A DNA stretch of 64,000 nucleotides from Amphiscolops sp. MND2022 (lineage: Eukaryota), in contig OZ076409.1 of assembly GCA_964187785.1 (NCBI GenBank), positions 29,638,001-29,702,000 on the forward strand, written 5' to 3'. Below the pieces are notes generated by a model. It was not told the DNA's origin and ran no database searches. It saw only the letters and a program-made list of their open reading frames with translations. The translations under genes were made by a program, and so were the position numbers. Shown here one piece after another: positions 886 to 47,951 of this stretch (its first letter is position 1; every line of letters starts with the position of its first letter).

Positions 886-1740
886 TTTGTATAAAGAAAC
901 TGGAGTTGGTGAAAGAATTTGAATTGAGATTTTAAGGTTAAATTTAAGTTGAGAGGAAAGGTTAAATCTTTCGCAATGATGTGGTAAGCTACTGAGCGTC
1001 AATTTATACCATAGGTTAATGGCTGTCTTCTTGCACCTCTTATCAATTTCGCAATGTCGGTCACGTGACAACGTCACGTGACTGTATTGACCAATAGCAC
1101 TGCACTACTAATGAGGTGTTAATTGCGACATACTGGTGGTTGTACTATTTGAGGCTTTACGATGATGTTGCGTTGCCATCGCTACGCATAATGTTTGTTA
1201 ATTTTACTACACTAATTGAAATGAGTAATAATGCACTATAATGGTGGTATATTACCATCGTTACATGTAAATTTAGAAAGCACTGTGATGTGGTTATATT
1301 ACCAACATCACTTACATATGGAATGAAATATGTTTATGTCATTAACGCTATATGCTTGAGCAATGAAATGGAGTAGTTGAGTTACCAGCATAGCCTGGTT
1401 TAACTAATGAAGAAATGAATAAAATAATTACTATAAAAATAGCTTGACGATAGTATATCAACTACATTACGTGATGCACTTTAGGAATGGGTTGAGAAAA
1501 GTCATGTTAAGAGTGTATGATTATAATGAAAATGGGATTGGGTTGTTATGTGATGACATGTAAATAACGTAGAAATGATGTAATTGAAGAGTTTTAGTTT
1601 TTTTGGTTTTAGTGATGCCGTGTATATAACTACATTCTTTTCCCCATTTGCATTTCGGCGCGTTTTGTCGGTTCACCTTTTACTGATGTTGTTCAGTTGA
1701 GAGCATCGTTGTTCAGTATTATCATGCGTCAGGCATGACA
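1..1740 (-). mobile_element. Ty3/Gypsy element A, 5' part (5' LTR 550-1740, PBS 538-549, gag), continues off the window start
   Basis: On the minus strand the LTR begins TGTCATGCC (1740) and ends CCGACA (550), followed by PBS TGGTGACAGGAG. Gag homology to element C (FEHLLLNHL, FQSLLRDDAIEFWQ). Confidence 0.9.
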
Positions 1741-2072
1741 ATCCCGTTGAAAGAATTCCCCCAGAAGAATGCGGAAAAACCGAAAAGTAGACGCGCAACA
1801 TGTATACCGGTTAGGCCAAAACACGAAATTCGCTGATTTTGATCGACAGTGCTATATTTATGGGTATTTTATGTTGAGTGTGCAGATATTCAGAGGTGTG
1901 ATGGGTTTTGACCTAGTAGGTCTCAATGTTAGATCTTACCCCGCAAATACAATCTACTTTATCTGTTTTTGGACCTGGTTTATGTAAGAAGGGTGTGCAC
2001 ATACCGGTTGTATGTAGGAAGTCGCAGGAACCTTAGGGAACGTTTTTACGTGCTTGTGAGACGTGTCCGGAC
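1741..2072 (+). repeat. Direct repeat, copy 1 (about 93% identical to 7909-8242)
   Basis: Base-by-base match from atcccgttgaaagaattccccc to acgtgtccggac, about 23 differences by eye. Confidence 0.9.
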
Positions 2073-5000
2073 CTTTTCTTGAGTTCACCTAACATTTTTG
2101 AAGCTCCAGGGTGTCCCCGCATGGGGTCGCCATGCATCGTCCTGATTATGGCTTCGGTAGTTTCTGGAGGAACTACAATCTGTCGGTAAGCTAAGTTTCC
2201 TACGTTGACAAAAAAACTGTCTGTACAACACGTTGTTCACGATTTCGAGTCTATTACGGTTTTTGAAAAATTTCTGGAAAAGGTACTTGCAAATTTCATT
2301 TGGTTTGGAGGGTTTTCTTGCACAGTAAGGATCCTAACTTTACGTTGGACAACACTATTTTCGCCTTGAGCCCTAACAATTTCTGAAATCCTCGAAGGGC
2401 ATACCTGATTTACCGTGTGAACCTGAATCCGTTGGTAGAATCGGGTGAAGAAAAGGGGTTGAAGAAAGGGTTGGGTCAGAGGGCGTCACGAACGGTTGCA
2501 CCTGGGTCTTCATGTCTTCAATGCCTCTACGGTACTGCTCTTCGTCTTCGTGACACCATTGAGGAAACATCGCCAGGAGTGACTGCAATGTTGGGTTTGG
2601 TGATCTTGTTTCATCAGGCACGTTCGTCCCGTCGGGTTTGTATTCTTCTTCGTCATCATCCTGTTTAGGCGTTTTTGAAGCCAGATCAAATTCGACTTTG
2701 GAGACTGGTATTCCGTCATGGAGTTTGAGGTGGACCCTGTCCTTCGGGCTGAGGTCAATTCCTGACAGGTAGTCGGCTGCTGGATTCTAAACGCCAGGTA
2801 CATGGGCCAGGACGATGTCGAATTGGAGGGCCTGATCACAGTAATTCCACAGTTTTGGCGGTATTCGTTTGGACTGGAAAAATTTTGTGAGTGTTTTGTT
2901 ATCAATCATGACAATCGTTGGTTCCTTCACTCCCCACAAATTACGGGCGAATTCGTCAAATGCGAAGTGCATGGCCAGGAACTCCTTCGCGTACATCGTG
3001 GGTGACATTTGACCCTCATTAAAAACTTGTGAACCAAAGGCAACTGGTGCATATGACTTCGTTGGTCCATCATTTGTCTCAGTGTAGTCCTCTATCAAGA
3101 GAACGTAGCCGGCTGCAAGGCTCACTAGCATCGCACATTATCACCAACTGTTTGTCTCGAAGTGGTAATCTCAGCGATATCTTGGCAGCATTCGCTAAGT
3201 TCTCGTTGATGTCAAATATCACATCTTTGTTGACTTGGGTGAGTTCGTATTTGACATCTTTCTGTAACAACTTGTATAGAGGAACCAGTTTCTCAGCTAA
3301 TCTTGGGATTTACTGGCGGTAAAACTGCACAAATCCAATATACCGTTGTAGTGACTTCACGGACGTCGGTAGTTTGATGTTCTCCAGAAACTTGTTGATT
3401 TTTTCCTCCATTGGCGCGATGCCTTTGGTAGTAATGCTTCTTCCCAGAAATTCGATCTCAGGTTGACCCAACGCACACTTCGCCATTGACAGCTTCAGAC
3501 CGGCCTGTCTAATTTTGGTGAATACCGTCTCAATGTTGCTGACTAGTTCTTCGACAGTGTTGGCTGCAATGCTGATATCGTCAACAAATTGGGCGCAATT
3601 GTCTGCCTTGACCAAGGGTCCAAGTACTCTAGAACTGTAATATTGAAGGCTGACAGGGACCGGTTTAATCCTTGGGCTAATCTGAGGAAGCCGAAGGTCC
3701 TACTTCCAAAGTTGAATGCAAGTAATTGGACTGATTGTTCATCTGTCATCTGCAAGCCATGGTACGCTTGTGAACAGTCCAGTTTGCAAAAATAACGTTT
3801 TTCAGCCATGTGTTGTGCTACATCGGCCATCGTCGTCACTGGGTGGTTGTGTTGGTTGTAATCATTCTTCAGTAAATGATTAATTCTTCTGAGATCGACA
3901 AGGATTCTGAGCTTCCCATTTGGTTTACGTTCAGCGAAGATGGGTGAACAGTACTTGCTGTACGGTAAAGCGGTGATTGAATCGTACTCTGCATTAATGC
4001 CAATTCAACCAGTAAATCGTCTTTCAGGTTCCTTGGTGTGGGTAAGCTTTGAGCATAAACTGGTTCGTCGTGTCAAACTTTATCTTGAACTCGGTTTTGA
4101 TCCCTATGTCCAGTCTATGTCTGGCGAAGATGTCATTGTACTTGACCAATAGAGCCTCAGTTTTCTGCTTCTTGTGAGGGTTCAGTAATGATTGTTCCCA
4201 CTGAAAGTTCGCCAAAAATTCTTGCCGTTGTTTTTCACTTGATGTTGGATCCAGTTTCTCCTCTGCCCTGAGTTTAATGATCTCGTCGTAGATTCGTTTT
4301 TCAATATTGTTGAGTCTTGACGGGTCATCACGTGTCTCAGGCGTAGGGTACCATCGTCTGTTTCTCTTTACATTTGGATCCTGGAAGATTTGGTTCAAAA
4401 CTGCTTCAGCGTCGGCTGGATATTGTGAGATCAGGTTGAGTTGGTGACTGGTCATCGGCTGTAGGTTATTGTCTCCCTTTGGTGTCATAATCTTGAATGA
4501 CGCTAAAGCATTACCCACATTGATGGTAATCTGGTAGTCTAGTGAGTTTATGATTTGGACGTGAGTCCGACCCTCTTGGGTCTCGCTGAGAGCCGGGGAT
4601 ACCAGCAGATGTGAACGTCTCTCGAAAGCGGGTAGTCCTTCGACGGTACCAGTGATGTCGCCAGGTTGCGTTCAATTACCACTGGGACGAACACTTGTTG
4701 GTGGGGTTGGATCACCATCTTCTGAGTTGTTTGCAATTCGAGTAATTTATTTTTGAATTTTTCGTTGACTGATCGCAGTTGGAGGGTGATGTCCGGGAAT
4801 TTGACTATGTTGTTGGCTAAGTCTGGGGTAACAGAGTATTTCATGAAGTATGACATTCCGATGAGTACGTTCCCCATTGTCGGGAGAACCATGAATGTTT
4901 CTTTGAAGACTTTGCCCCCAATGAAGAATCGTAGTAGGGTTGCGCCAGTGTCAAGGAGGCCAAAGTTTTTGTTTTCCCGAAAATGAAGTGGCACGTACAA

Positions 5001-5370
5001 CATCTTGTCTTTCCTGTTGAGTTGTAAGGTGGCACTCAACTGGCGGTTTTCGTACTCTGGTTTCTTCGGCGGTTAGTTTGGTTTTGAAGATGTGGTTTGT
5101 TCATCATCATTTGGTAATTCAGTCATTGTGTTGTCTTGACCTAATGGTTCCATGTTGTTGACTGCAGGTCTTCGTTTCAGTTATTTCGGTTTGATGGTGT
5201 AGTTGTCAGTCGAATGTCTTGTGATGACAATGTTTGAGTTTCTTTAGTATAGGTTGAAGGAGGGGCCTGCCACCGTGTGTGGTTTACAGTTGTGAGTCGT
5301 TTTTGAGTATTAGTCGGTTTTCGGTGATTCTGATGCACACTTTTGTTTGATTGAGGGGGATGACGTGACT
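2073..5370 (-). pseudogene. pol: pol of element B (PR-RT-RH-partial IN), multiply frameshifted
   Basis: ORF fragments 4548-5039, 4024-4518, 3543-3839, 3310-3615, 3079-3270 and 2787-3131 are colinear with element C pol. Confidence 0.9.
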
Positions 5371-5371
5371 T

Positions 5372-6907
5372 TAGAAGTTTTTTTGGTCCTCTACGTCATC
5401 GTGTCGTTCCATTTCCTCAATATTGTTAATTTCGTCGTTGGTAGTGTGGGACAGCTCGTTGGTATTGTAGATAGCCCTGTATTGTAGACAGCCCTGTTGT
5501 TGGTCTGTCGAAAAGCCCTTCTGAACTGTTTGTTTTCTTCCGTTGACTGTTTAGGATACGGGACGTTTTGGTGGGCTGATGCGGTCGTATTTCTGTGATA
5601 ACAGTCTCGGGCTGAGTGTCCCACCTTGCCACAAAATTGACAAACGAGTTTTGAGATGTATTTAGAACTGTTTTCTTGGGCCTGGTTCGATTGGGTTGTC
5701 TGTTGTTGTTTCTGGTTTGTGGGTTTTGCCTGTGCTTCTTATCAGAGGCGTTTCTTACACTCCGCCTTTTTGTGCCCATGTATGACGCAGTGACGGCTTT
5801 GTCCATCCAACTTTCTCTTTGTTTCCCTGTTATGTTTGTGGATTGGGTATTTGACGTCTGAGGTGTGGCTGCATTTGGTTGGGGTGCACTCATTTGGTTG
5901 AATGGTTGCGCACCGACTGTGTTTGGGAGGAGTTGTGCATATTGACATCTACGTTGCACAAATGTCCGAATCTCTTCCATCGTGGTGTCATGTTTGCCCG
6001 ACATTGCCAGTTCGTTTTGCTTTTGAACGGGAAGTTTCGCGAAAAAAAATGTCTCTGTTATGTCGCTGGATTTGTCTCGAAATGCTTGTTTCGCTTCTTT
6101 TGAAAATTTGTTGAGGTAGTCGTTAAATGTCTCGGTCGAGGGATCATAGCGCATTTGGTCAATTTTGTATTTGGCCACTTCTTTCAGGTCCTCTTTGGCG
6201 CACTCTATTTTGAAGTAACGCAAGACTTGTGTTAGGGTCGTCTGATTCGTTATCTTCAATGACTGCAAAAATTCAATGGCAACATCGCGTAGCAGGCTTT
6301 GAAATTATGTCAGTTTCTGTTCTTCTGATAAGTTGTGTTGGTGTGGCCTGACATGGTTGAGCAGAAGGTGCTCAAATTCATTGTATTTTCCCCAATTTCC
6401 TCGGAAAAGTGGGACTTGCGTTTGTAGTATTTTCGGATGTTGTACTGTATCCGTCTTGGTATCCCTCAGGTGGTGGATTTCGGAGACGATGTTGTCAATT
6501 TGGTAGGCGGATGACTGAGGGTATTGCGATGTGGGTGGGCGCAATAGGTTCGTCTGCGGGCTGCTGGTTGATGCTCCTGTCACCATGTCGGAGCTGGTCT
6601 CATGTCCAATTGACACCTTGTTTAGTTCGTTCACTTCTCTATTGCTAGAGGAAATCTTTGCTGTTAGTACTAAAACTAAGTTCGTCAGTTCGGTAATTTG
6701 TTTGTTCATCTCGGAGAACCTTTGATTTACTGTACGTCGTTTAATCTCATTTCGATTATCTAGTAAGTCTCCATTATCAAATTCGTTCATCTGTTCTCTT
6801 GTTAGAACATCAGGCACACTGTCTTTGCTCTCTGCATAACTGTAACTATCTGTTCCGTTCATACTTGTTGGGTTATATTTAATTGCCTGAGATCTAGTAT
6901 TAACCAT
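5372..6907 (-). pseudogene. gag: gag of element B (premature stop and frameshifts)
   Basis: ORFs 6305-6907, 5426-6268 and 5391-5624 are homologous to element C gag, with zinc-knuckle remnants. Confidence 0.88.
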
Positions 6908-7908
6908 AAATTAAAACTACTGGAGTTTTATGAGGTTTTATTGGGTTATTGTAATAAATGGGTTCTGGTATTGGTATGATGAGGCTAGTTGTATACGAAT
7001 AAGATTGTGGTTAGCAACCGCACGTTATAACCGCAAATTCTACTGGTGGCACTCTCGTACCTGCTATTGAGTATGTCGATGTCGGACCACATCGGCGTGA
7101 CCACATCGACCAATCGCATTGCAGTATTATGGTGGTGTTAATTTGCACCTCGATTAGTAATTGCCCAATTTGAGTTTAAACTTGATACTGCACGGAAATA
7201 TAATGTGATGGTGTTACTATAGTTACATGACTCACTAATTGGTATATTCGTTTAGTATTGCAATGTGGCAATGTTGCCAACATCGTATGAGCAAATTATT
7301 AATATAGGCGTTGGTAACGAAGTTAACTGCATTAGAATGAAATCTGGTGATGGTTTGTCACCCACATTACGTGCTTAATCATATAATGTATCATATATAA
7401 TGTATCATGAAATTGATTTAAAAGGTACATGTAGAAAATGTATGATTATGGCTGAAAGAGAGAAAAGCTATTTGAAACCTAAATATAAATGATGCATCTG
7501 AAAGATTTGAGATTAAGTTTGATGATGTGGTTTGGTTAACTACAATCTTTTTCCTTCGTCTGTGCTCATGTACTGTTTGTTGATTTTATGTCTCGACTCT
7601 TGAATGTTGTGTAGTTAACCACTTCTCTGTTCAACATTCTCATGCATCAGGCATGACACAAGATAATATATTTCTCTTCTTTACTATCTATCAACTGATG
7701 TATATGTTTGTAACGTCAGGCAGTCGGTGAACGCAATTTTTGAAAATTTGGAACAAGTTATGCTCAACCTGGCAGGTACTTCCAATCAGTCTGGAAGACG
7801 TTAAAAAAGACAGACACCCCACCCCATCCCCGATAGCGAGAAAGAGTGCAGAAAAACCCCAAAAAAGGAACTCTAGACGTCGTCCGTGACAGAGTGCCGA
7901 AGAAGAAC

Positions 7909-12249: not shown

Positions 12250-12302
12250 TTTATTTTTTAATTAGACATTAAAACCGAAAGAGAGATGCAACGCTAGAGA
12301 AC
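12250..12302 (+). repeat. 53-bp target duplication, left copy (identical to 24634-24686)
   Basis: tttattttttaattagacattaaaaccgaaagagagatgcaacgctagagaac abuts both ends of element C. Confidence 0.95.
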
Positions 12303-14557
12303 AAATATTATGTCTTATGTACTTAGATATGGGCAATATGATGTCATATAATAAGGGCCATGGTTGTGAGCAACCCTACGTTACTTGTACCTTAATCCCC
12401 ATCCACCTTGAGTTTGAGCTATATATATATATATTTACTTAATACTGAGCGCTCTAGTTCCGGTGTCCGCATTCATGATCTTGCTATTAGCCTTAAATGT
12501 GTTACATTTCATAAATATTGGTTTGTCACGACAAGGGAGAGAAGTTTTCCGGTCAGACTGGACCGAGAGATGTAGAAACAATGAAAGCTGTAACTCCTAC
12601 TAGCTCCCCGCCTCAGGGCTTGTAGTCGTGACGAATTTCAGAAAAGTTCATCACTAATCCATCAGCGGACTTAGTGACCTTTCAGCTTGATTTACCAGTG
12701 AAATTACAGTGCTATTTTACCAAAGTTCATCGCAATCACATCGCCAAGATTGCGGGTGAACAAAAATTGGGACATTTATTTGATTTTATTTAATGATCCA
12801 TCAGCGGATCTCACGGGACTTTAAAATGCATGAAAACCATCCCATACTCATCGCCGTTTTGTGATTATTAACCTTCAATGTGCTTCTCATTTCCTAAAAG
12901 AGCATAACACATCTATATTTCATCGTCCTGACTAGTAACAATAAGAAATGAGAAAGTACATCCTTAATTCATCCTTAAAAAGAGTGAAGTAATGGATATC
13001 TGTTTTATTAGACTAATTCATCACTAGTTCATCGTAAAATTAGCTCGCACTACATTTGGCAGATTTATTACACAAGTTCATCACTAATTCATCGCTAGCT
13101 CAACTTGCGCTAGAATTAGTTGAATTTTCAGTTGAGTTCATCCTAAACTCATCATTGGAATTTGAACCATTAGATTTAGCTGTTTTATTGAATGTATTCA
13201 TCCTAAACTCATCGTACGTTTGTCTTCACTGTAGAATTAGCTGTTTCACCTGTTTTATCGACTGAATTCATCCTGAATTCATCGTCAATTTCACTAGTGC
13301 TGGAATTTAGCTATTTTCGAGGAGAGTTCATCCTTTTACCATCGTCGATTTAAATCGTGCTGGAAATCGTTCATTTTGAAGAGAGTTCATCCTTTTATCA
13401 TCGTCATTTTAAATAGTGTTGATTTTCGAGCGAGAAAGACTACGTTTCATCGCATATTCATCCCAGAGCTAAACAAGACTTGAAAATCAACAAATAAGGT
13501 CATGATTCATCACATATTCATCTTTGGTTTTATATGCATCGATTTACTGTCGTTTCTAGTTGGAAATCATCGTTTCTCCCATCCTGTGATATAATGTAAC
13601 TTGATCCAGTCTGAAATTAGTGTGATATCGATTACTTTTGATGCATTTTCGTTACTATAACAACCATTGTGTTATGTGCAGGCAATTGCGACATCTTGTA
13701 AACTAATGACTAATTATCATTTGCATATGTAGATTCATCATGGTGCTAGGCCATCTTGCGGCAGTTCACAACACCGGTCACGTGGCTTACCATCTTAGCA
13801 CCAACTACGGTAGCCAATGAGAAGAGGCTGGTAAGAGATTAGCGTCTTACCAGCCTGAAAAGACACGTGAACTGCTGTAATTAGGGCCGCCATTAGTAAT
13901 TACTCAGACCGAAATTGCGACAAGCTACCATCCAGTAGGATACCTCGCGTCGAATTTTACTCGAAAATACATCTCAGCTTCATCTTCAGAAACTATAATA
14001 CTGAAAACTGAGTAATTTCTTTTGATGCACTTACTGCTGCGATGAACATTGGATGAACTTTCCTATTCACCTTGCTAATTTCCTACTACCTTCCTTACGA
14101 CTTGCTTATTTATACTAATCATCGATAAAACATCTCTGTTCAAATTTAGTAAATTAGAGATTATAAAATCAAATAGAACAGCAAAAATACATCGCAATAA
14201 CATCTCAGATAATCCAGTCTTCACTCATAATCCTTTTCCCTCGTCTTTATGAATCCAGAACAAGGTACTGAACTCAGAAGTGGTAAAATTATTAGTTCCT
14301 CGTCTGAAACATCTATTCCAACTGATCCAGACATGGCCCAGTCGTCTGCCAATGACTCCGATAGCAACGAAACTTCAGATATCTCGTCTCAGTTGTCTGA
14401 AATAAGAGAAAGTTACGAAAGGAAAATAAACGAGTTACAAAATGAGTTTAGTCAACTGAAGGACTTAATGATGGCTGTTATAAGTAAGACAGACTGTGAA
14501 AATCGGCCATCAACTTCGAAAGGTCCTTCAAAGCCGGCCCACACAGTGGGTCCGACA
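12303..14557 (+). repeat. 5' LTR of element C (lacks the first 48 bp of the 3' LTR)
   Basis: Aligns to 22380-24633 with few differences; ends CCGACA. Confidence 0.96.
12647..13583 (+). repeat. Degenerate array of about 16 units (about 60 bp) with conserved core TTCATC-N5-TTCATC, in the 5' LTR
   Basis: Core starts at 12647, 12726, 12786, 12836, 12908, 12957, 13017, 13077, 13137, 13197, 13267, 13327, 13386, 13446, 13506 and 13566. Confidence 0.9.
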
Positions 14558-14570
14558 TGGTGACAGGAGT
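14558..14570 (+). promoter_or_regulatory. Primer binding site (probably tRNA-Leu)
   Basis: TGGTGACAGGAGT directly after the LTR-terminal CA; conserved in elements A, B and E; resembles the complement of tRNA-Leu 3' ends. Confidence 0.8.
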
Positions 14571-15746
14571 TACAGAAACCCGCTCCACCCGCCCGACAAC
14601 CAGCTTCACCAACTTCAGAAGATACCAAGAAGACGACTCAGACGAAGAGGGAGAATCAACCCCCAGAAGCAATGAGGAACGACTACTCAATGCAATCGAG
14701 ACGATCCCCCAACGGATCAAAAACACCACCACCAACACGAAGCTTCTGCAGACACACGTGCCAAATTTCAGAGGCCAAAAAGACAAATTCGTCGAATTTG
14801 AACACCTTCTCCTCAACCACCTCAGCCCGCTTGCCAACAAAATCACCGAGGAGAACAAACTACACTTCTTTCAAAGCCTTTTGAGAGATGACGCAATAGA
14901 ATACTGGCAATCCATCCAGATAACGCCAATGACAACACTAAAGGACGTACTCGACCTCTTCAGAAAAGAATTTGCAAAAGAGGATCTCAAGGAAGTGGCG
15001 CGTTACAAGTGGGACCAAGCACGTTATGATCCCACAACAGAAACATTCGGAGATTTCCTCAAAAATCTCAAGAAGACTGCCAAACAAGCCTTCGGCAATG
15101 AGGCCGACAAAGTAATCAAAATGTTCTTGTTTGGAAAACTACCAGTCGAGATTCAACAAGAGCTCACTATGGCAAACAAAGAAGAGAGCTCCCCAGAGGA
15201 AATCAAGACATACTTGATGAGAAAGTACCAGTACCAGCAGTACGTCGCGCCACCTACGGCAATCCAACCATTTAACGCGGTCACCTCCTCAGCCCCAGCA
15301 ACGATTACAACGACGAAGCCCACAACAACAACGACGACAACGCATCCCACGGAAAGAAAACGATTCGAAGGACAATGTTTCTACTGCGGAAAGACAGGCC
15401 ACCGCAAAACAGAATGTCGCGCCCGCCAACGTGACGAAGCAAACGGCATCAAAAAGGAAAATGCAATTCCGATGAAGAAAGTAACCGACCCAGACAAACC
15501 GAAGTACAATCCCAAGCTGGTTTGTCAAATTTGTGGATACACCGGCCACTCTGCAAGAGACTGCAGACGACGCATTCCCAAGGAAAGCAGCTCTGCATAT
15601 GGAAAGATTCCATACACAACGAATTCACAGGACGACAACAAGGCTAGACGACAAGATTCAAAACGACAACAAAAGCCGATGAATCCTATGCAAGCAGTTG
15701 CCGAAGAAGAAGACCAAGAAAGCTACTCTGATGAAGACATAAATCA

Positions 15747-15753
15747 GGGTTTT
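15747..15753 (+). promoter_or_regulatory. -1 ribosomal frameshift slippery heptamer G GGT TTT
   Basis: X XXY YYZ in the gag phase just before the gag stop; pol lies in the -1 frame. Confidence 0.85.
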
Positions 15754-18700
15754 TGATTCCGCCACGATTTCCGCCCGCTACCAACGACACGCGCGACAAA
15801 CGACTTACGACTCAACAACAGACTCACAACCGTCCAATGAAGAAATGGCAGCCTTCACTGGACAAACGACCAAAAGCTGACGACGTCTATCAGCGAAGAC
15901 TTTCCAATGATGAAAAAGCGATGGGAAATGCACGTCAACTCAACGGCAGCCGCTTTTCTCCACTCGCTGAAATCAACGATGAACAAACGATGAACTGGCA
16001 ACAAAACACCATGAGGCAGGTGGAAGATGCCAAAGAGATGGAAACCCACCATCTTGACGACGACTCGACTTCACACTCCACAATCGACAAACGGCTTAGT
16101 ATTAAAAAACATGCAAAACAGAGTAGTATTAACGTTTCAAAAACTAAAAAACATGCAACTAAAACAGAAATTCACGTTCTCAGTCCCACTTTACACTTAA
16201 ACAAGAAAGATAAAATGCTTTACGTCCCTCTTCAGTTTGACAAATATGAAAACAGCGCACTTTTAGATACAGGCGCAATTCAAAGCGCAATGTCTGAAGC
16301 GGAATTGCGAAAAATAACAACGGCTCATCCAGAAGCCATCCTTCATGAACTCCCCCCTCCGAATTTCAAAATTCAAATAGCAAACGGGAATTTAGTCCCA
16401 GTACGTAAGCAAGTCTTACTTAGATTTTACGTTGCTGGAAAAGTCTTTGAAGAAACGTTCCTAATCCTTCCAACAATGGGCACAATTTTAATTGGAATGT
16501 CATTCTTTGAAAAGTACTCAGTCAATTTAGACATAAAAAACCACCTTGTCCACTTCCCTAATCACATGATGTCCATGCAAGTTAGACAGCAAAAGAACAA
16601 CAGATTCAAAACTGGTTTAATTGATTTGTGTTCCAGCACCAGAACAGTGATCCCTCCTCTCCATCAAGTGATGATACAGGTCCACAGTGACGCGGACATC
16701 TCACTTACAACTGGTACAGTTGAGGGCTCACCTGGATTCATGCGAAAGACGTGTTTGCTTGTTTCTCCAGCTTTGGTTGACCTAGACGAGGGCAAGACGA
16801 CAATCCAGGTCACCAACCCGAACAACCACACGTTCACACTTGATGCCAACACCACTCTGGCACACTTTCGCATACCGACACCACATCAGGCGGCAAACAT
16901 CACCCCCATGCCAGTCGAACACTTGAACCTGATCACCAAGTACCCAGATGAGGCGGAAGCAGTGATCAACCAACTGTTCGTGAACCCTGAAATGAAGTCA
17001 ACTAAGTGGTACCCAACTCCCGAGACGTGCAGTGAGCCAGACAAACTCAACGCAATTGAGCGACGAATCTATGATGAGATTCTGGCACTACGAGAGCTCG
17101 AGAAGCTTGACCCGTCCCAATCTGATGAACAACGGATGAACTTCCTGAAGAACTTCAACTGGGACGACTCGCATCTTACTCCGTCTCAACGGTTACAGGT
17201 AGAGGAGTTGCTGGTAAAGTACAACTCCATTTTTGCTAGACACCGTTTTGATATTGGCATGAACACTGATTTTAAAGTTAAGTTAACACCTCAACATGAA
17301 GAACCTGTTTATTCACAAAGTCTCCCGACTCCGACAAATTTGAAGGACGATTTGCTCGTGGAGTTAGCTTTAATGCAAGAGTACGGGATCATAACTACTT
17401 TGCCTCATAGCAAATACTCTTCCCCGATATTTGCCCAACGTAAACCTAATGGTAAATTGAGGATTTTAGTTGACTTGAGAAGAATAAACCATCTGATCAA
17501 AAACGATTACGGTGAACACAACCATCCCGTAACAACAATTGCTGACGCTGCCCAACACATGACCGGGAAAAAGTATTTCTGTAAACTTGATTGTTCCCAG
17601 GCCTACCATTGCATTCCAATGGCCGATGAGCAGTCTGTCCAACTGTTATCATTTAATTTTGGTTCTAGAACTTTTGCCTTTTTACGCCTAGCCCAAAGTC
17701 TTAACCGTTCTTTGTCAGCATTCACAAGTGTAGTCCGTGAGTATTTGGACCCCTTGGTCAAAGCGGACCGATGTGCTCAATATGTTGATGACATTGGAAT
17801 TGCAGCACACACCCCTGACGAACTGATTAATAACCTTGAACTTGTTTTTCAGCAGTTGAACAAAGCTGGTCTCAAACTTAGCATGAGTAAATGTGAATTT
17901 GGACAAAAACAAATTGAGTACTTGGGAAAAACCATTTCTAGCACCGGTATTGCTCCCATTGAGAAACGAGTAACTGACTATCTAACCAAGTTGAAACCCC
18001 CCAATTCAGTGAAAGCGTTGCAACGTTATCTTGGTTTTGTAAACTTTTACAGGTCTTATATTCCCCGACTAGCTGATAAAACTTGTTGTTTACAGGAATT
18101 GATCAAGAAGGACGTCCCTTTCAAACTGAATCAACAACATAAAGACGCTATTTTTGAAATCAATGAAAGTTTGTTAAGAGCAACAAAAGTGTCTCTGAAA
18201 TTGCCATTACCTGATAAACAATTGGTAATCATGTGTGACGCCAGCGAACACGCTGCCGGCTATGTTTTGTTAATTGAGGATTATGCTGACCCGTCAGTCA
18301 AACAAACATACGCCCCTGTTGCATTTGGCTCTAAAAAATTTCAGGGCGGCCAGATGTCTCTAACAATGTATGCCAAAGAGTTTTTAGCTATGCACTTTGC
18401 CTTCGATGAATTTGGCCACATTTTGTGGGGTGCGAAAAAACCCATCATTGTTATGACTGACAATAAGGCCTTGACTAGATTTTTCCAGGCGAAGCATATC
18501 CCGCCTTCACTTTGGAATTTTTGCGATCAAACCCTTCAGTTCAATTTTTTATTAGCACATGTTCCAGGAGTTGAAAATCCCGCAGCTGACTACTTATCTC
18601 GGCTTGAGATTAGACCTGAAGACCGTGTACATTTAAAATTGACTGATACTATTCCAATTCACAGGATCGAGATCGACATCGCCTCCCGTACACCAAAACA

Positions 18701-19604
18701 GGAGGAAGACGAGCCTGATTACTTTCCCACGAGCGAACCACTCAGATGCAAACGCCAGAAGGATGTCAAAGAGATGAAATTGGCAAATGGCACTGACGTG
18801 GCTCATGACGATGGGAAAGGGATGAAGTTCACCAACTGTGAGAGAACAGCGACCTCAGATGACTTCGCGACTGACAACCATCTGACGTACCGCCTCACAG
18901 ACGTGGACGAGCCGATTCAACTCTCGCAATTCATCCGTAAAGTATCATTATCACACCCGGTAATGAGTCAGGTTAGCCCCGCCGAGGGGATCGATCTAAT
19001 TCAGGTCCAGAAAAATAACTGGGTTATTCAAAAAATGATTAGATTTTTAGAAGGTACTGAAATTTTGCAACACCCAGTTATAATGCAAGATCAGTTTTTT
19101 CAAAAGTTGTACAAAAATCGAAAACGCCTACAAGTTGTAAACGGTGTCTTGTACAGACAGTTTTTTGATCACACGGGACTAGAGTCTCACAAGCAGTTAG
19201 TCGTTCCTGAAGACTGTATTTTGAAAATAATTAGGACTCTACATAACAGCCCGGTACAAGGACACCCTGGTTTAAAGAAAATGTTGTACGAACTTCGTAA
19301 AAGATATTACTCTCCTAACTTAGCCTGTAAAGTTCAAAAAGTCCTTGACGGATGTGAAAACTGCATGAAATCTAAAAGTGTAAAAGAAACGCAACTACGT
19401 CCACCGTTACAAAAAATCTACGACCCGTGCGACGGACCAGAAGACCTGTTAGAAATAGACATCGTTGGTCCACTCCCGGCGTCGAACGGTTTTACACACA
19501 TTCTGATAGCTAGAATGAAAGACAAAAGAGAAAACGCCATATTTAGGACTTTTGACGATGAGAAAATGATGAAAAGAGAAAAACCGCAGAAAACTAAAAA
19601 ATGA
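15753..19604 (+). CDS. pol: Pol polyprotein (aspartic protease, RT, RNase H, integrase N-terminus; IN catalytic core lost after about 19510)
   Basis: LLDTGA, YVDD, MCDASE, HNSPVQGHPG...CENC, EIDIVGPLP, then an unrelated Lys-rich tail. Confidence 0.95.
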   Translation: MIPPRFPPATNDTRDKRLTTQQQTHNRPMKKWQPSLDKRPKADDVYQRRLSNDEKAMGNARQLNGSRFSPLAEINDEQTMNWQQNTMRQVEDAKEMETHHLDDDSTSHSTIDKRLSIKKHAKQSSINVSKTKKHATKTEIHVLSPTLHLNKKDKMLYVPLQFDKYENSALLDTGAIQSAMSEAELRKITTAHPEAILHELPPPNFKIQIANGNLVPVRKQVLLRFYVAGKVFEETFLILPTMGTILIGMSFFEKYSVNLDIKNHLVHFPNHMMSMQVRQQKNNRFKTGLIDLCSSTRTVIPPLHQVMIQVHSDADISLTTGTVEGSPGFMRKTCLLVSPALVDLDEGKTTIQVTNPNNHTFTLDANTTLAHFRIPTPHQAANITPMPVEHLNLITKYPDEAEAVINQLFVNPEMKSTKWYPTPETCSEPDKLNAIERRIYDEILALRELEKLDPSQSDEQRMNFLKNFNWDDSHLTPSQRLQVEELLVKYNSIFARHRFDIGMNTDFKVKLTPQHEEPVYSQSLPTPTNLKDDLLVELALMQEYGIITTLPHSKYSSPIFAQRKPNGKLRILVDLRRINHLIKNDYGEHNHPVTTIADAAQHMTGKKYFCKLDCSQAYHCIPMADEQSVQLLSFNFGSRTFAFLRLAQSLNRSLSAFTSVVREYLDPLVKADRCAQYVDDIGIAAHTPDELINNLELVFQQLNKAGLKLSMSKCEFGQKQIEYLGKTISSTGIAPIEKRVTDYLTKLKPPNSVKALQRYLGFVNFYRSYIPRLADKTCCLQELIKKDVPFKLNQQHKDAIFEINESLLRATKVSLKLPLPDKQLVIMCDASEHAAGYVLLIEDYADPSVKQTYAPVAFGSKKFQGGQMSLTMYAKEFLAMHFAFDEFGHILWGAKKPIIVMTDNKALTRFFQAKHIPPSLWNFCDQTLQFNFLLAHVPGVENPAADYLSRLEIRPEDRVHLKLTDTIPIHRIEIDIASRTPKQEEDEPDYFPTSEPLRCKRQKDVKEMKLANGTDVAHDDGKGMKFTNCERTATSDDFATDNHLTYRLTDVDEPIQLSQFIRKVSLSHPVMSQVSPAEGIDLIQVQKNNWVIQKMIRFLEGTEILQHPVIMQDQFFQKLYKNRKRLQVVNGVLYRQFFDHTGLESHKQLVVPEDCILKIIRTLHNSPVQGHPGLKKMLYELRKRYYSPNLACKVQKVLDGCENCMKSKSVKETQLRPPLQKIYDPCDGPEDLLEIDIVGPLPASNGFTHILIARMKDKRENAIFRTFDDEKMMKREKPQKTKK

Positions 19605-19692
19605 AAACAAAAAACGACGGCAAATAGATAAAAAAGGAGAAAAGCGCGAAAATGCTAGTGGAAGCGGAAATGAAAAAGGTAAAAACGGAAAG

Positions 19693-21188
19693 TTACTGAT
19701 CAAATACTTCACAGGTTTTAAAGCTGTTTAGGTAACCTGGTAGACGAGACGCGATTGGCTCATCATCGGAGTCAATGAGGCTGGGCCCCAACGGTGAGGT
19801 CTCTCCTAATCCAATGTCTGGTGCAGGAACAACGTCGCCAGGATCAGGACCAACAGACGGAAAACCACTGAAGGAGAAGTCCTCGGGAATCTCAACCCCT
19901 GTCATAGTGCCACTGGCCGAAGGAAGATCGGGCTGGTCAACGACTGGCTCCACCATCGAAAGGACGTCAGCGGTCAACGAGGAAGCAAAGGGAGGAGACT
20001 CGACAGGAGGATCGTGCACGGTGGAGGAATCAATGGTCTCCACAACAGCCTGCACTGCTACGTCAGCAGAATTGCACACTGTATTGATGGCCACATCCAC
20101 TTGCTGCACCTCATCCCTCGTTGAGGTACCATGGCACACAGTCACCCGAGGAGGAGGACTTCTGGCAGCGAATTCACCATCCAAGTATCTCTGTAAGTTG
20201 GGCGACAACACGGAGACTGGAGCCCTTGCGACCGGAGAACTGGCGGCATTCACTGCGAGATCCTGTAAGAAGGAAGACAGCTCAAGCTGAGGAGGCCCTC
20301 CTTGGGTACTGACGTCGACGCTGTCATTGCCGAAGTCACTGGTCCCAATCGCAATGGAGTAAGTGATGGGACGCGGTCTCGGTGCGTGAATTGGCGTTGG
20401 GCCTGAAAGAAGAAAACAGAAATCAGACGACGACGAACGGAGAAGAAAGAGCGCGTACGTCGCGCGAAGAAAGAAGTCTGGAGCAGAATTTACCCATGAC
20501 CCATCTTCAAAAAATGAAATTCGCAGCGAGTCAATCAGAAAAGGCTGCGAATGTTCATGACACATCCTAAATTCATCTTAAAAATGAATTACATGGGTAA
20601 TCGACCGCAAAGGACACTACATGCAGATGCGATGTTTACATCGGAATCACATCGGAGTGTTCGGACGATCGCCTAGAGGAATGAAAAAGGAAATTGACAA
20701 ACTCACTGAACTGCTGGATGCTGTCCCGCAGCATGTCCCACATGTGGCGGTCATACCACCCGAAGGTGATGCTGCCGAGAGAGGCATACCAAGGGTAGTG
20801 ATCTGAAACACCGTACGAAAAGGAGTCAGCTACTGGACGAAGTGAGGATGAGATATGAGGAATTCGAAGACTGAACTGAAGAGTGGAAGGATAGTACTTA
20901 CACTGCGGCAGATACGGGACATTGACAGGTTGACCGACCTGCAACTCAGGGTCAACCTGCGGCTCAGCGGCTACCGGCTGAACAACAGGAACTTCTTGGG
21001 GTGGCACAGTTTGCAGTGTCGTGAGTTCTGACACGATGCCGACAGAGTGGACTGAGTCAGCTAAAGCAAGGGTGCGTCCTAAGTAATTGATTGTCCCTAA
21101 CCCCTTTGTGAAGAAAAGAAAAAATAGTGCACTTACTTTCTGTGGCCTCGGTCTCAGGTAACGAATGAACTGAATGAATATCAGACAT
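19693..21188 (-). CDS. Predicted spliced antisense accessory protein, 448 aa; exons 21188-21137, 21060-20640, 20566-19693
   Basis: GT-AG introns 21136-21061 (GTAAGT...CTTTAG, 76 nt) and 20639-20567 (GTAAAC...ATTTAG, 73 nt) join an ATG exon and two track ORFs in frame (52+421+874=1347 nt). Confidence 0.75.
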
Positions 21189-21689
21189 CTCGCACTCGAA
21201 GAAGAAATTGCAGCAACAATCTGAAAAGAATGGAAGAAGGTGAAAGAAGGAAAGAAATCGAAGAATCCAGGAACAGAGAATTTGATCAGTAATTAAATGG
21301 CCTGATCAACCATGATTACGGAAGAACAAATTCAATAGAAGATTTCAAAGAGCGCGACGCAGCTTGAATGCCATGGTAATCAAATACTTGAATTCAGAAG
21401 ATGAAAAATCGATGAAAAACTCTCCGATTTCAAATACTGACACCACTCTTCTTCCCAGTACAGCCAACTCAAGCTTTCTCTGAAAATGGATCGTCCTCTC
21501 CTAGGACTTGACAAAAAACTTCAAGTATTTGATTTGTTGACAGCTGCCAGTCTCAGATCAATACCGACGAAGTTGAGCGGAAACGCGCAAAGGAAATCGT
21601 GGCGATTTTCAAACCGACTTGAATGGAGGATGATTTATGGATGAGAATGCTGCTGACAACCGGTTGTAACTTCCTTCAGTTATAAATTC

Positions 21690-21830
21690 AGTCTCAGCCA
21701 ATCAGATCGAGCAACAGTTGCTATGACGACGAATTCATCTCTTTCTCATCGCTCAGAAGTCGAGCAGCGGAAGTAGCTTCGACGGTTACTATGGCAACGA
21801 CTCATTCCTTTCTCATCACGGAAGCTGATA
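21690..21830 (-). promoter_or_regulatory. Candidate promoter/enhancer of the antisense gene: CCAAT, two RFX X-box-like sites, CGGAAG
   Basis: CCAAT at 21698; GTTGCTATGACGAC 21717-21730; GTTACTATGGCAAC 21785-21798; the two sites lie in a diverged duplication of about 68 bp. Confidence 0.45.
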
Positions 21831-22331
21831 GCAAAGCAACGGCACCAGTCGTCTGCTAAATCAACATCGATGTCTCGCTGTGTAAACAATTCATCGTTCA
21901 TTCATCCCCGACTCGTTGCCAATTTGTCCATAAAGCTAATCGAATTGTTTATTCAGTGTAGGCGTTTTGGAGAGAAACTTTTCTCCGAGAAATCAGTTTC
22001 TACCGAAAATACCCAGCCGAAACTCCCATCAAAAGCATGACAACCAATAAAATGCAGATCAGCGGACATTCGATGGACCAAGAATTAGAGTTGCCGCGTC
22101 GAAAATTTTAACCGAAATCACCCAGGATGATGCCAGAAAAGACGATTACCGAAGGTCCTCTTCTCAGAGAAGCTCTCACAGGACAGAACAAACGAAGGAC
22201 ATGCCAATTCAGAACTAACGAAGGACATTTTCTCCCCAACCAAACGAAGGACCAGTCGAAGCCAACGCCGAGACAACCATCCTCTGCACATTTGGCCCCT
22301 GCACTCTCAGTCCAAATCCCGCCCCGGGGAG

Positions 22332-24633
22332 TGTCATGCCAGCATGATGGAAATATAATCTACTAAATATCTGTAATGTAAATATTATGTCTTATGTACT
22401 TAGATATGGGCAATATGATGTCATATAACAAGGGCCATGGTTGTGAGCAACCCTACGTTACTTGTACCTTAATCCCCATCCCCCTTGAGTTTGAGCTATA
22501 TATATATATTTACTTAATATTGAGCGCTCTAGTTCCGGTGTCCGCATTCATGATCTTGCTATTAGCCTTAAATGTGTTACATTTCATAAATATTGGTTTG
22601 TCACGACAAGGGAGAGAAGTTTTCCGGTCAGACTGGACCGAGAGATGTAGAAACAATGAAAGCTGTAACTCCTACTAGCTCCCCGCCTCAGGGCTTGTAG
22701 TCGTGACGAATTTCAGAAAAGTTCATCACTAATCCATCAGCGGACTTAGTGACCTTTCAGCTTGATTTACCAGTGAAATTACAGTGCTATTTTACCAAAG
22801 TTCATCGCAATCACATCGCCAAGATTGCGGGTGAACAAAAATTGGGACATTTATTTGATTTTATTTAATGATCCATCAGCGGATCTCACGGGACTTTAAA
22901 ATGCATGAAAACCATCCCATACTCTTCGCCGTTTTGTGATTATTAACCTTCAATGTGCTTCTCATTTCCTAAAAGAGCATAACACATCTATATTTCATCG
23001 TCCTGACTAGTAACAATAAGAAATGAGAAAGTACATCCTTAATTCATCCTAAAAAAGAGTGAAGTGCTGGATATCTGTTTTATTAGACTAATTCATCACT
23101 AGTTCATCGTAAAATTAGCTCGCACTACATTTGGCAGATTTATTACACAAGTTCATCACTAATTCATCGCTAGCTCAACTTGCGCTAGAATTAGTTGAAT
23201 TTTCAGTTGAGTTCATCCTAAACTCATCATTGGAATTTGAACCATTAGATTTAGCTGTTTTATTGAATGTATTCATCCTAAACTCATCGTACGTTTGTCT
23301 TCACTGTAGAATTAGCTGTTTCACCTGTTTTATCGACTGAATTCATCCTGAATTCATCGTCAATTTCACTAGTGCTGGAATTTAGCTATTTTCGAGGAGA
23401 GTTCATCCTTTTACCATCGTCGATTTAAATCGTGCTGGAAATCGTTCATTTTGAAGAGAGTTCATCCTTTTATCATCGTCATTTTAAATAGTGTTGATTT
23501 TCGAGCGAGAAAGACTACATTTCATCGCAAATTCATCCCACAGCTAAACAAGACTTGAAAATCAACAAATAAGGTCATGATTCATCACATATTCATCTTT
23601 GGTTTTATATGCATCGATTTACTGTCGTTTCTAGTTGGAAATCATCGTTTCTCCCATCCTGTGATATAATATAACTTGATCCAGTCTGAAATTAGTGTGA
23701 TATCGATTACTTTTGATGCATTTTCGTTACTATAACAACCATTGTGTTATGTGCAGGCAATTGCGACATCTTGTAAACTAATGACTAATTATCATTTGCA
23801 TATGTAGATTCATCATGGTGCTAGGCCATCTTGCGGCAGTTCACAACACCGGTCACGTGGCTTACCATCTTAGCACCAACTACGGTAGCCAATGAGAAGA
23901 GGCTGGTAAGAGATTAGCGTCTTACCAGCCTGAAAAGACACGTGAACTGCTGTAATTAGGGCCGCCATTAGTAATTACTCAGACCGAAATTGCGACAAGC
24001 TACCATCCAGTAGGATACCTCGCGTCGAATTTTACTCGAAAATACATCTCAGCTTCATCTTCAGAAACTATAATACTGAAAACTGAGTAATTTCTTTTGA
24101 TGCACTTACTGCTGCGATGAACATTGGATGAACTTTCCTATTCACCTTGCTAATTTCCTACTACCTTCCTTACGACTTGCTTATTTATACTAATCATCGA
24201 TAAAACATCTCTGTTCAAATTTAGTAAATTAGAGATTATAAAATCAAATAGAACAGCAAAAATACATCGCAATAACATCTCAGATAATCCAGTCTTCACT
24301 CATAATCCTTTTCCCTCGTCTATATGAATCCAGAACAAGGTACTGAACTCAGAAGTGGTAAATTTATTAGTTCCTCGTCTGAAACATCTATTCCAACTGA
24401 TCCAGACATGGCCCAGTCGTCTGCCAATGACTCCGATAGCAACGAAACTTCAGATATCTCGTCTCAGTTGTCTGAAATAAGAGAAAGTTACGAAAGGAAA
24501 ATAAACGAGTTACAAAATGAGTTTAGTCAACTGAAGGACTTAATGATGGCTGTTATAAGTAAGACAGACAGTGAAAATCGGCCATCAACTTCGAAAGGTC
24601 CTTCAAAGCCGGCCCACACAGTAGGGTCCGACA
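22332..24633 (+). repeat. 3' LTR of element C (2302 bp, TGTC...GACA)
   Basis: Starts TGTCATGCC like the LTRs of A, B and E; contains a copy of the motif array and the Gag N-terminal ORF 24324-24656. Confidence 0.96.
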
Positions 24634-24686
24634 TTTATTTTTTAATTAGACATTAAAACCGAAAGAGAGATGCAACGCTAGAGAAC
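24634..24686 (+). repeat. 53-bp target duplication, right copy
   Basis: Identical to 12250-12302. Confidence 0.95.
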
Positions 24687-39214: not shown

Positions 39215-40912
39215 AATTGGAGGGGTACGTACAGCATTCTGCCCTTTTTATCCAATTGAACTGTCGCAGTCAAGAGTTGGATTGCCACGTCTTTTTCCGT
39301 GTTGGAGTCTTCTTCTTCTGGTGGTTCGTCATGAGAGTCTCATTTGGAGGTTGTGAGTCTTCTGACGTTTGAAGTGGAGTTTTAGTTGGCATATGGAGAG
39401 GATCGGAATGATGCTCTCTGTTGGTAGTCATTTTGTTAATAATCACAAATGTAGGTTCCTGATCCTGCTGATGATCAGTAACTTGAGTTTTGAAGTTTTT
39501 AGTGTAGTAATGGGTGTTTATGTCGCGCACATTGTTTTTGTAGTAGTCGTTTGGATGATGTGGCTTCAGAAGCTTTTTGGTTGGTTGGAAGAGTTATCGA
39601 TGTATTTCTGTTGGTAGTAGTTATTATTCATCTCTGCTTGTTGGTCCGTTGGTGTTTGATCGGTCAATTCATTGGTTAGGTAATGACCATTTTGGGCTAT
39701 CCTGAAGTCGCGTCGAAAGTCTCTATTCTCTGATGTGGACTGTCTCTTGTAGGGCACACTTCCGTATGCTGACGTCTGTGGAATTCGGTAGCGGCAGTCT
39801 TTTGCGGAATGGCCTGTGTATCCACAAATTTGGCACACTAATTTAGCGTTGAATTTTGGTTGTGATTCTGATTGGGCATTAGTTTGTGGTTCAGATGTCT
39901 TGTGGGCTTGGGAATTGTTGCCTGCAGCAGCGTCTCGCTGTCGTTTTCGACACTCAGCCCATTTGTGACCATAAATTGCGCAATATCGGCAGGTTCCATC
40001 GAACTTCTTCTTGGCCTGAGGTCTGTCGGCTTCAATTCGTTTCTGGATGACTGGTTTGCTCGGGGCTTCTTGTGTTTGGACAGCCTGGTTGAATGGTTGG
40101 AGGAGTTGTTGATTTGGTAATAGTTGAGCGTATTGGCATCTTCTCTGTACAAATGTTTTTAACTCTTCGATACTGGCCTCATGTTTACCAGCAATTGCCA
40201 ACTCGTTCTGAAGCTGAATGCGTAATTTGGCAAAGGTAGTAAAAATACAAGGTAGGAAAAATCTTAATGGCTGTTTTCGGATTAGACGCTTTTCACCTTC
40301 TAGCGTCTCCGCACTTTGCAGGTGTTAATTGAGTACTACTTTCAACTTCAACTGAAGAGACGACCGCGAGTACCGGTCGTTGTAGCAACCAATTATATGC
40401 ACTAACTATTTCAATACTATTTTACGCTTTAATGGCTTTAGCTTTAACATTTTCTACTGTGGGATTAAACTGATGACTGTATATTTCGGTATTCATGGTA
40501 ACTACTCTGTTACTACACTTGATGTCAAGAATTATGATTGAATATGTAGATAATGGTGCGATTGTATACATATTGAAACTTGATAAACTACACAGCTATG
40601 TCAAACAGAATAAAGCGATGACTGAGTACTCCAGTCTTACATGTGGGACTTTATGTATAAATACTAGGTTTAGGACAACAAACTGATGAAGAATGACATT
40701 GACGACTGATGATCCCAGTCATAATTGCAAGTATATTTAAACAATACTGAATAATAACTATTGGTATCAGTATATGTACCCGTTTGACTAGGCCAGTAGT
40801 CACTTGATTAGGATCACTGCTAGCATTCTATTCAATATAGTAACGTTATATGACGCTTTGTGCTTTTAGGAGTTTGTATAAGATAAGCTGTTTTCGGAGT
40901 TTCTGTATTTCT
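39215..40912 (-). mobile_element. Gypsy fragment D (family of E): partial LTR fused to gag C-terminus and pol start
   Basis: 40250-40912 matches the E LTR; ORF 39566-40201 has two zinc knuckles; KGRMLYVPLQF near 39230. Confidence 0.85.
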
Positions 40913-41760
40913 AGTTGTAGTCGGACATTTGGTGCAGCGAAAACTTTTGCTATCGTAGACAGTGATTCGACGAGTGAAATTCCATACGCGAACGTGCGTG
41001 ATTCTGGATCATCGGAGGAGTATTAACGCGATATGTGTCGTGCAGAGACTTCGACTGTTTTGAATTTATTAGCTCCTGACTTTGCAGTTTTGTTTGAGTT
41101 TTTGATTTGCGTAACCGTGAATGTTTTGGTTTTCGTATATTTGAGGTGTATTTTAGTACTTACTTTTGTATTTATTTCATTTACGACTGTATTAGTCACT
41201 TGGCATCTGCGTTAGTTAATTGAAACTGTTTGCACTTGCCGTCATATGACGTTTTTTTTCTTTAGTTACATGAGTTTTAAGACTGTGCATGTGAGGCACT
41301 ACGATTAGGATGTTAATGTTGCATGTATGAAGTGTTGTACGTTACCGCTAACTACTGTGTGTATCAGTTGTCGATTCGATCTTCTTAAGTTGGTTTAACT
41401 TAGTCAGGTGATAGTTTCAACTTGAACTTCTGGTTCTGATACAAGCGAGTCATGGTGACTGTATGTGGTGGTCTTCTCAGTTGTGTTGGGTGCAACGACG
41501 ATAACGTTGTGCTAACTTTGTGAAAGGTGATACATGGGGTGACCCATGTATTATTGAAAATGCATGCCGTTTAACTCATCGTTTTGTTGTGACTTCAGTA
41601 AGAGCTGCTAATGGGTTTCTTGGTTAAGCATGGAGGCTGCCGTGGCAACCCCCAATTTGAAAAATTGTTCACTCACAGAGCCTTGCTGTGCATGGTCTGC
41701 TAGAGGCGAGTCCTACCCATGTCTTCGTTGTTACTGAATGCTCGAGAATGGTATCAGGAC
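40913..41760 (+). mobile_element. Possible LTR end, PBS and leader of an unrelated LTR element
   Basis: ...gtcggaca tt TGGTGCAGCG; no coding homology seen. Confidence 0.3.
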
Positions 41761-41789
41761 GTTATGGTAATTTTCGGTTGTCGTTTTGC

Positions 41790-47950: not shown

Positions 47951-47951
47951 T

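Follow-up and report, generated by a model that had tools for sequence, protein, structure and literature searches.

Does a retrotransposon encode a protein that reads a short DNA motif scattered along its own length? The question is raised by element C, a Ty3/Gypsy long terminal repeat (LTR) retrotransposon in a 64,000-nucleotide stretch of Amphiscolops sp. MND2022 DNA (contig OZ076409.1, positions 29,638,001 to 29,702,000), the whole of which is called the window here. Element C has LTRs, a gag with a CCHC knuckle, and a pol in the order protease, reverse transcriptase (RT), RNase H, integrase. By what means retrotransposons evade silencing by their host is an open question. Regulators that are encoded by the element itself and are sequence-specific have been demonstrated in experiments mainly for plant DNA transposons.

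An earlier note on this DNA described a CATC-N7-CATC motif throughout element C and proposed that an antisense orphan protein of 448 residues, or else a dimeric host factor, recognizes it. Comparison with other copies and with sister families suggests that the element family does encode a regulator that recognizes its own DNA. This self-encoded regulator is probably sequence-specific and transposase-derived. The general proposal gains from a zinc finger, from motif cores under selection, and from a joint change of finger and motif; the protein named at the time falls away as a finger-less, apparently mis-spliced product.

A spaced motif throughout element C

CATC-N7-CATC and its reverse complement GATG-N7-GATG have 50 perfect sites in the window. 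Forty-nine are in 12303-24633, one is in the other 51.7 kb, and 65 kb of unrelated hAT loci contain none. With one LTR counted, element C holds 32 sites against 0.4 in dinucleotide shuffles, and 18 of them are in the LTR. The earlier tally was at least 31, and every coordinate listed in it is present, as is the occurrence in both orientations. Its six pol sites become seven with the addition of 16326, which was overlooked. Two sites that had been placed on splice junctions, 20563 and 20639, are both inside a conserved intron of the antisense gene (intron 2, 20706-20403). Other spacers (0-6 and 8-24) give 0-4 sites each in element C, so the spacer of seven is specific. The extended site has a consensus of roughly (A/G)TTCATC-N5-(T/C)(T/A)CATCG.

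One copy served to define the sites, which were then compared with 16 further copies. Over 672 site alignments, divergence is 4.9% in the cores, 17.0% in the spacers, and 22.5% in the flanks, and lone CATC words also diverge by 22.5%. Relative to spacer and flanks, conservation of the cores is 3.5 to 4.6 times higher, and the cores are under purifying selection. Five of the seven alignable pol sites are kept at the homologous place in a sister family (family 2, 74% DNA identity). All five are in linkers; the other two, 16326 and 17124, fall in conserved domains and are not kept.

The arrays in the LTR and the spacer clearly expanded by tandem units. In 12 related copies, 256 of 332 distances between neighboring sites are 48-49, 59-61, 69-71, or 80-82 bp, and family 2 favors opposed site pairs 24 bp apart (44 cases). 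The first array after pol in the L039/L040 pair also has a palindromic word, GATGG-N6-CCATC, three times among direct-repeat sites.

A seven-exon antisense gene

The window copy of element C is defective, with a short 5' LTR start, a flank duplication, a break in the gag frame, and a pol that ends just into the integrase core. Nine of ten long copies extend past window position 19506 into approximately 7.08 kb absent from the window; the tenth is without the pol side. The deletion at 19506 takes the integrase core, two motif arrays, most of a third, and antisense exons 4-7, including the finger. The complete element is approximately 19.4 kb, and nine fuller copies have 51-60 motif sites in the 18 kb covered. 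Antisense exon 2 has at least 150 matches in the genome (1,148 candidates). Neither an env gene nor terminal inverted repeats were found in the element.

In the fuller copies, a spliced antisense gene of seven exons encodes a product of approximately 1,080 residues, and exons 4-7 are in the stretch absent from the window. The product is composed of approximately 360 acidic residues rich in proline, serine, and threonine (P/S/T), a finger in exon 4, and then approximately 540 residues predicted to be mostly helical. Across 30 copies, 151 of 157 single-hit exon calls share the position and phase of AG/GT (or AG/stop); outside this set are 12 split and two absent calls for exons 3-7 and 10 split calls for exon 2. 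Introns differ completely among these copies, and exon identity falls to 40%. Splice phases of the family 3 gene are the same by eye.

Exons 2-7 are all open in 8 of the 30 copies. Exons 4-7 are open more often than exon 2, a figure inflated by the choice of 20 of the 30 copies with preference for a stop-free exon 7 or exon 4. In stop-free exons, the pairwise ratio of nonsynonymous to synonymous divergence (dN/dS) ranges over 0.09-0.34 in exons 4-7, with 0.19-0.31 in exon 2 and 0.27-0.57 in exon 3; the pairs are not independent, and dS between alleles is mostly saturated. The antisense gene is conserved as a protein and is ancient within the Gypsy clade of element C.

Exons 4-7 move as a cassette between subfamilies, with divergent alleles on near-identical RT backbones. 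One copy pair with 99.2% alike RT is 97% identical in exon 2, 57% in exon 4, and 51% in exon 7. Family 1, the window's own family, also has copies (L037, L039, L047, and others) with old exon 7 alleles 36-60% identical on RT backbones 94-99% alike. The rearranged locus L089/L090 combines exons of the family 1 and family 2 types with a duplicated block of exons 4-5 and an array of 77-bp tandem repeats.

The 448-residue model can be reproduced in length from a donor at 20640 and an acceptor at 20566, and its frame is kept in few copies. The stretch added to exon 2 keeps its frame, free of stops, in 7 of 29 copies and is one base shorter in the other 22. Exon skipping and an acceptor 18 nucleotides upstream of exon 2 were also considered and are not conserved across subfamilies. 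The 448-residue protein thus appears to be a mis-spliced, finger-less N-terminal fragment. What looks like an orphan gene in a single copy can be a remnant of a far larger gene.

Finger and motif in four families

Four Gypsy families share the antisense gene. Family 2 has 77-79% DNA identity to the window in RT and the same gene, with exon 7 approximately 25% identical. Families 3 and 4 are kin of two further types of element in the window, relative A and relatives B/E (RT 67%), and have the antisense gene in 11 of 11 loci. These relatives thus carry the accessory gene, together with other motifs. The earlier statement that A, B, and E have no array is correct for CATC-N7-CATC, of which elements of families 3 and 4 contain 0-1, and does not extend to spaced motifs of their own. 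Counts of CATC-N7-CATC per element are 32-58 in family 1 and 39-43 in family 2; by locus, nine of ten family 2 loci have 40-55 sites, and the rearranged tenth has 19.

A blind spaced-word search gave ATG-N15-CAT in family 3 (core ATGTGG-N9-CCACAT), with 31 sites against 4.3 expected, distributed through the LTR, pol, spacer, and introns. In family 4, the same kind of search gave AYGACTG-N7-CAGTCRT, and sites of the GACTG-N7-CAGTC type number 13-14 against 0.4-0.7. In 20 further loci, a loose family 3 pattern, fixed beforehand, has 306 sites against 84.5; the strict pattern, tuned after these loci had been viewed, has 71 against 1.3. Tabulated against family, the motifs separate cleanly. All three motifs have a common CAT/ATG core with family-specific neighbors. 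The hAT loci contain 0, 0, and 1 sites for the three motifs, and no spaced word is enriched in degenerate Gypsy fragments at 54-64 kb of the window.

A short segment of the exon 4 finger differs in parallel. It reads SRGITTF in 25 of 27 matched family 1 cassettes, SRG[LI]STF in family 2, GRGLSSL in loci of the family 3 type (15 of 19 matched), and GRGLHNL in family 4. Outside the segment, which is nearly fixed where the motif is fixed, exon 4 sequences differ by up to 45%. In the BED finger of the Hermes transposase, base-reading residues are described in the loop and helix start directly before the first histidine (PMC10368747). Counted back from the first histidine, the residues that differ between families would, by analogy, correspond to these base-reading positions. 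Finger segment and motif change together between sister families, and the co-variation envisaged in the earlier note is present across the four families, resting on two motif changes only.

Identity of the antisense protein

The exon 4 finger has the BED ligand pattern CxxC-x(15-20)-H-x(3-5)-H/C with an upstream aromatic residue. Residues C33, C36, H53, H59, and F9 are invariant in 11 of 11 exon 4 sequences from the four families. Pfam zf-BED matches have E-values of 0.19 and 0.016 (12.2 and 15.6 bits). The sole PDB match to the finger is the ZBED2 finger 2DJR (E 0.37), and the top four Atlas clusters are BED-type (0.79-0.84), a lead only. Pfam, PDB, and Atlas are concordant, none above threshold, and weakly suggest a BED-like finger.

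Exon 4 has no named homologues; its matches are unnamed ENA proteins of the same antisense gene. One relative, P0026, is encoded in the same genome as the window. Another, P0019, is probably from another genome because its best match in the window's genome is 30% identical. The last exon of families 3 and 4 (L111 5411-6778, L121 6250-7617) encodes an additional basic low-complexity tail of 100-130 residues that is absent in families 1 and 2.

The antisense protein has a sequence that we take to resemble one hAT branch; profile and fold tests did not confirm this. The structure model of exon 5 has a helix, three strands, and a helix, at a predicted local distance difference test (pLDDT) score of 47.7. 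Fold searches with the exon 5 and exon 7 models gave nothing clear, the best Z being 3.0 for exon 5. A PDB profile search with exon 7 gave weak unrelated matches only, and Atlas had no usable exon 7 match. The hAT dimerization domain PF05699 has no Pfam match, and the corresponding region of the exon 7 model has pLDDT below 50. A local hidden Markov model with hhalign against 11 hAT fragments of the same genome was negative (probability 0.1%), with the hAT branch taken as closest outside the template set. No invariant Asp is present in the cross-family exon 5 alignment, where the catalytic D, D, and E were sought. Finger, helical region, three-strand sheet, and a second, long helical region follow one another in an order compatible with a hAT transposase that has lost catalysis. 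The mostly helical part behind the finger is probably such a hAT-type transposase.

Mechanism and alternative explanations

In the proposed mechanism, the antisense protein, as a dimer or multimer, would read two half-sites of 4-6 bp with the common CAT/ATG core through its BED-like finger. It would coat its own provirus, with sites over the LTR, pol linkers, spacer, and introns. The acidic disordered N-terminus, or the exclusion of repressive chromatin, would turn or keep its own family on. The regulator would act in trans, deleted copies such as the window copy included. From sequence comparison, it is likely that the accessory protein binds the motif, whatever the outcome. We lean toward the fuller claim that it binds the bipartite sites of its family along the provirus and promotes expression of the family in trans. 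More tentatively, a Gypsy clade may have captured a DNA transposase, disabled it, and put it to use as a private lock-and-key regulator against chromatin silencing of a kind other than CpG methylation. Each family would then rewrite the finger, re-seed matching sites, including those in pol, and swap ancient allele cassettes.

Several observations weigh against activation by a self-encoded, motif-reading protein. The zf-BED matches of 12.2 and 15.6 bits do not reach the curated cut-off of 20.6 bits. Of the 30 copies, 16 have a broken exon 2, which belongs to the proposed activation region. Sites in pol and introns are not positions that a plain promoter activator requires, and the spacing steps of approximately 11 bp could also stem from slippage between half-sites. 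The strict family 3 and family 4 patterns were derived from those same families. RT and exon 4 trees are congruent, ((1,2),(3,4)), which leaves two motif changes and no statistical test, and because the trees agree, shared descent alone could link finger and motif. The gene-less controls, limited to degenerate Gypsy fragments and hAT loci, are weak. There is no footprint of CpG methylation: observed/expected CpG is 0.87-0.92, and transitions in LTR pairs are equal at CpG and other sites (21/1508 and 73/5862). CpG demethylation of the VANC type, compared below, is not supported, given these ratios and the lack of a CpG excess in LTR pairs.

Binding could also have another outcome. The protein may recognize its cognate motif and repress its own family, as copy-number control, or it may scaffold cDNA (complementary DNA) or provirus through looping, nuclear entry, end pairing, or integration tethering, by analogy with transposases that multimerize on subterminal repeats. 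Helix-phased sites throughout pol linkers, spacer, and introns would suit such roles, as would an LTR array downstream of the TATA-like run, the absent methylation footprint, and the more frequent openness of exons 4-7 than of exon 2. We consider this outcome unlikely, since the acidic P/S/T-rich exons 2-3 are under purifying selection and resemble an activation region, and the families are abundant and include young copies (at least 150 matches, LTR pairs approximately 99%). Activation is also the effect of those known element-encoded regulators whose sites are scattered in this way (PMC5735166; 10.64898/2026.08.24.746577).

Host transcription factors, one per family, might instead read the motifs, with the antisense protein otherwise employed and co-varying by descent. 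LTRs often accumulate host-factor sites, the independent motif changes are two only, and the BED matches are weak. This explanation is improbable in view of a putative reading segment that is near-fixed with the motif and changes with it while the rest of exon 4 diverges by up to 45%. It also has to accommodate three motifs with one CAT/ATG core and family-specific neighbors, and unrelated loci with 0 CATC-N7-CATC sites over 65 kb. Hardly credible is a motif that arose as a neutral by-product of tandem duplication or serves as an RNA-level signal. Tandem-unit growth of the LTR and spacer arrays is what such a by-product would leave, but core conservation 3.5 to 4.6 times that of spacer and flanks largely refutes neutrality. 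Five pol sites retained across families at 74% DNA identity, the two orientations of the motif, and the dispersed, non-tandem palindromes of families 3 and 4 also argue against it.

Features of the window

The two LTRs of element C are 2.3 kb and 99.2% identical to each other. The 53-bp flank duplication and the 48-bp loss at the 5' LTR start may reflect aberrant integration, later conversion, or an assembly artefact.

Table 1. Positions of element C, its motif sites, and its antisense gene in the window, with sites in related elements
Feature	Position	Strand	Remarks
Relative A, family 3 type	1054..7283	.	Four AYG-N15-CRT palindromic sites: 1054, 1288, 1615, 7263
Duplicated 53-bp flank	12250..12302 and 24634-24686	+	In place of a 5-bp target duplication
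5' LTR	12303..14557	+	Start ~48 bp short compared with 3' LTR; end CCGACA; TATA-like run ~120 bp in
LTR motif sites, n=18	12649..14204	.	Downstream of TATA-like run; spacing mostly 49/60/70 bp
gag	14231..15756	+	Start inside LTR; two zinc knuckles; frame broken near LTR end in window copy
Putative primer-binding-site position	14558..14569	+	TGG start; identical word in families 3 and 4
pol	15735..19604	+	Protease, RT, RNase H, integrase zinc finger; integrase core severed by deletion
pol motif sites, n=7	15909..18824	.	Linkers: 15909, 15978, 16026, 18762, 18810; conserved domains: 16326, 17124
7.08-kb internal deletion junction	19506	.	L031 positions 4830 and 11906 both align to 19506
Final remaining site of intron-3 motif array	19557..19571	-	Motif scan and deletion mapping
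Antisense exon 3	19737..20402	-	221 codons; 30 D/E, 8 K/R, 72 P/S/T; phase 1-1
Antisense intron 2	20403..20706	-	GTGAGT donor, pyrimidine-AG acceptor; holds motif sites 20563, 20639
Antisense exon 2	20707..21060	-	117 codons; phase 1-1; many of the other copies have it broken
Antisense exon 1, coding part	21137..21188	-	ATG at 21188, GTAAGT donor
Motif sites upstream of antisense gene, n=4	21400..21906	.	Motif scan
3' LTR	22332..24633	+	TGTCATG...CCGACA; 17 motif sites; short purine-rich tract just before
Relatives B/E, family 4 type	40360..49286	.	11 AYGAC..GTC-type palindromic sites; copies outside pattern derivation

Between pol and the antisense gene, a non-coding stretch of approximately 70-110 bases, built around a GATGAAGC core and predicted to form hairpins, is present in the L039/L040 pair, approximately 1,160-1,270 bases past the pol end, and in L071, L111, and L121. 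It is conserved in families 1-4 at 71-80% identity, and the LTRs are mostly unalignable. This stretch is a possible RNA element; Rfam has no match in four loci, the stretch included. The exact reverse complement of a 14-base LTR word (window 12603-12616) adjoins this conserved stretch in the pol-gene spacer of fuller copies (E 0.06). The pair may represent long-range pairing in genomic RNA or chance.

Elsewhere in the window, positions 44200-51712 contain a tandem duplication of approximately 3.76 kb (98.6% identity) that includes an LTR and an RT fragment like that of long interspersed nuclear elements (LINEs). Positions 24817-33060 are probably a Maverick/Polinton-like element, with a DNA polymerase B (PF03175) open reading frame (ORF) at 28166-29326 and neighboring unknown ORFs. 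A gap of 200 N is at 33116-33315.

Comparison with known systems

VANC of the Arabidopsis VANDAL elements (Mutator-like) is an element-encoded accessory protein with a short element-specific motif, tandemly amplified in introns, intergenic DNA, and terminal non-coding DNA (PMC5735166). As here, related families are described as having different motifs in non-coding regions (PMC5735166). The present host element is a Gypsy element, not a Mutator-like DNA transposon, and has an antisense seven-exon gene, a BED-like finger, and bipartite sites, known from sequence alone. It lacks a CpG-methylation footprint, and Pfam scans of the element proteins gave no VANC-related domain. For anti-silencing, the available part of a meeting report names only VANC (PMC12859917).

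TnpA of En/Spm belongs to the transposase-derived regulators, for which an origin as transposase minus catalysis is proposed and which act on dense motif clusters of their own family (10.64898/2026.08.24.746577; PMC13547354). Such regulators are described as remaining in their own DNA transposon or as host-domesticated; in the present case, the regulator appears to have been captured by a class I element. The words "retrotransposon", "LTR", and "Gypsy" are absent from the main text of the preprint (10.64898/2026.08.24.746577). If the capture is true, it would be a transfer of the VANC/TnpA principle from class II to class I elements.

The plant Retand (Tat) Gypsy elements have a long region from pol to the 3' LTR, an antisense TRP28 ORF predicted to be DNA-binding, and family-specific tandem repeats (PMC11963269). 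The regulatory role there is a proposal, and the system is confined to flowering plants (PMC11963269). Position and strand of the antisense gene, between pol and the 3' LTR, agree with those described here. In contrast to Retand, the present gene is spliced and has a zinc finger, the short spaced motif is element-wide, and finger and motif co-vary. TRP28 (PF04195) has no match in the antisense product at E up to 1.

The hAT transposase Hermes has a BED finger, and its 4-bp sites are read cooperatively at fixed spacing (PMC10368747). Like hAT transposases and ZBED factors, the antisense protein has a CxxC..H..H finger near the start of a mostly helical module of approximately 700 residues. Unlike them, it has no recognized DDE triad and no significant sequence or fold match to the catalytic or dimerization domain, and its sites are element-wide rather than subterminal, without terminal inverted repeats. 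Foamy virus Tas and HTLV-1 Tax/HBZ are regulators encoded by LTR elements that act on their own LTR, and HBZ is antisense. Element C differs from these complex retroviruses in its lack of env, its unrelated protein, and its dozens of element-wide sites in place of a few response elements. In the literature searched, a partial coverage without repeat databases, no LTR element with a BED-finger antisense gene was found.

With three natural finger-motif pairs available in a single genome, the idea is directly testable by a 3 x 3 binding matrix, and the pairs would supply a natural recognition code for BED fingers. The same comparison may match the orphan antisense ORFs of other LTR elements, e.g., Retand, to their targets. 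As judged from its genes and sites, the system appears to work like VANC and TnpA, has a layout like that of Retand, and is a member of none of them.

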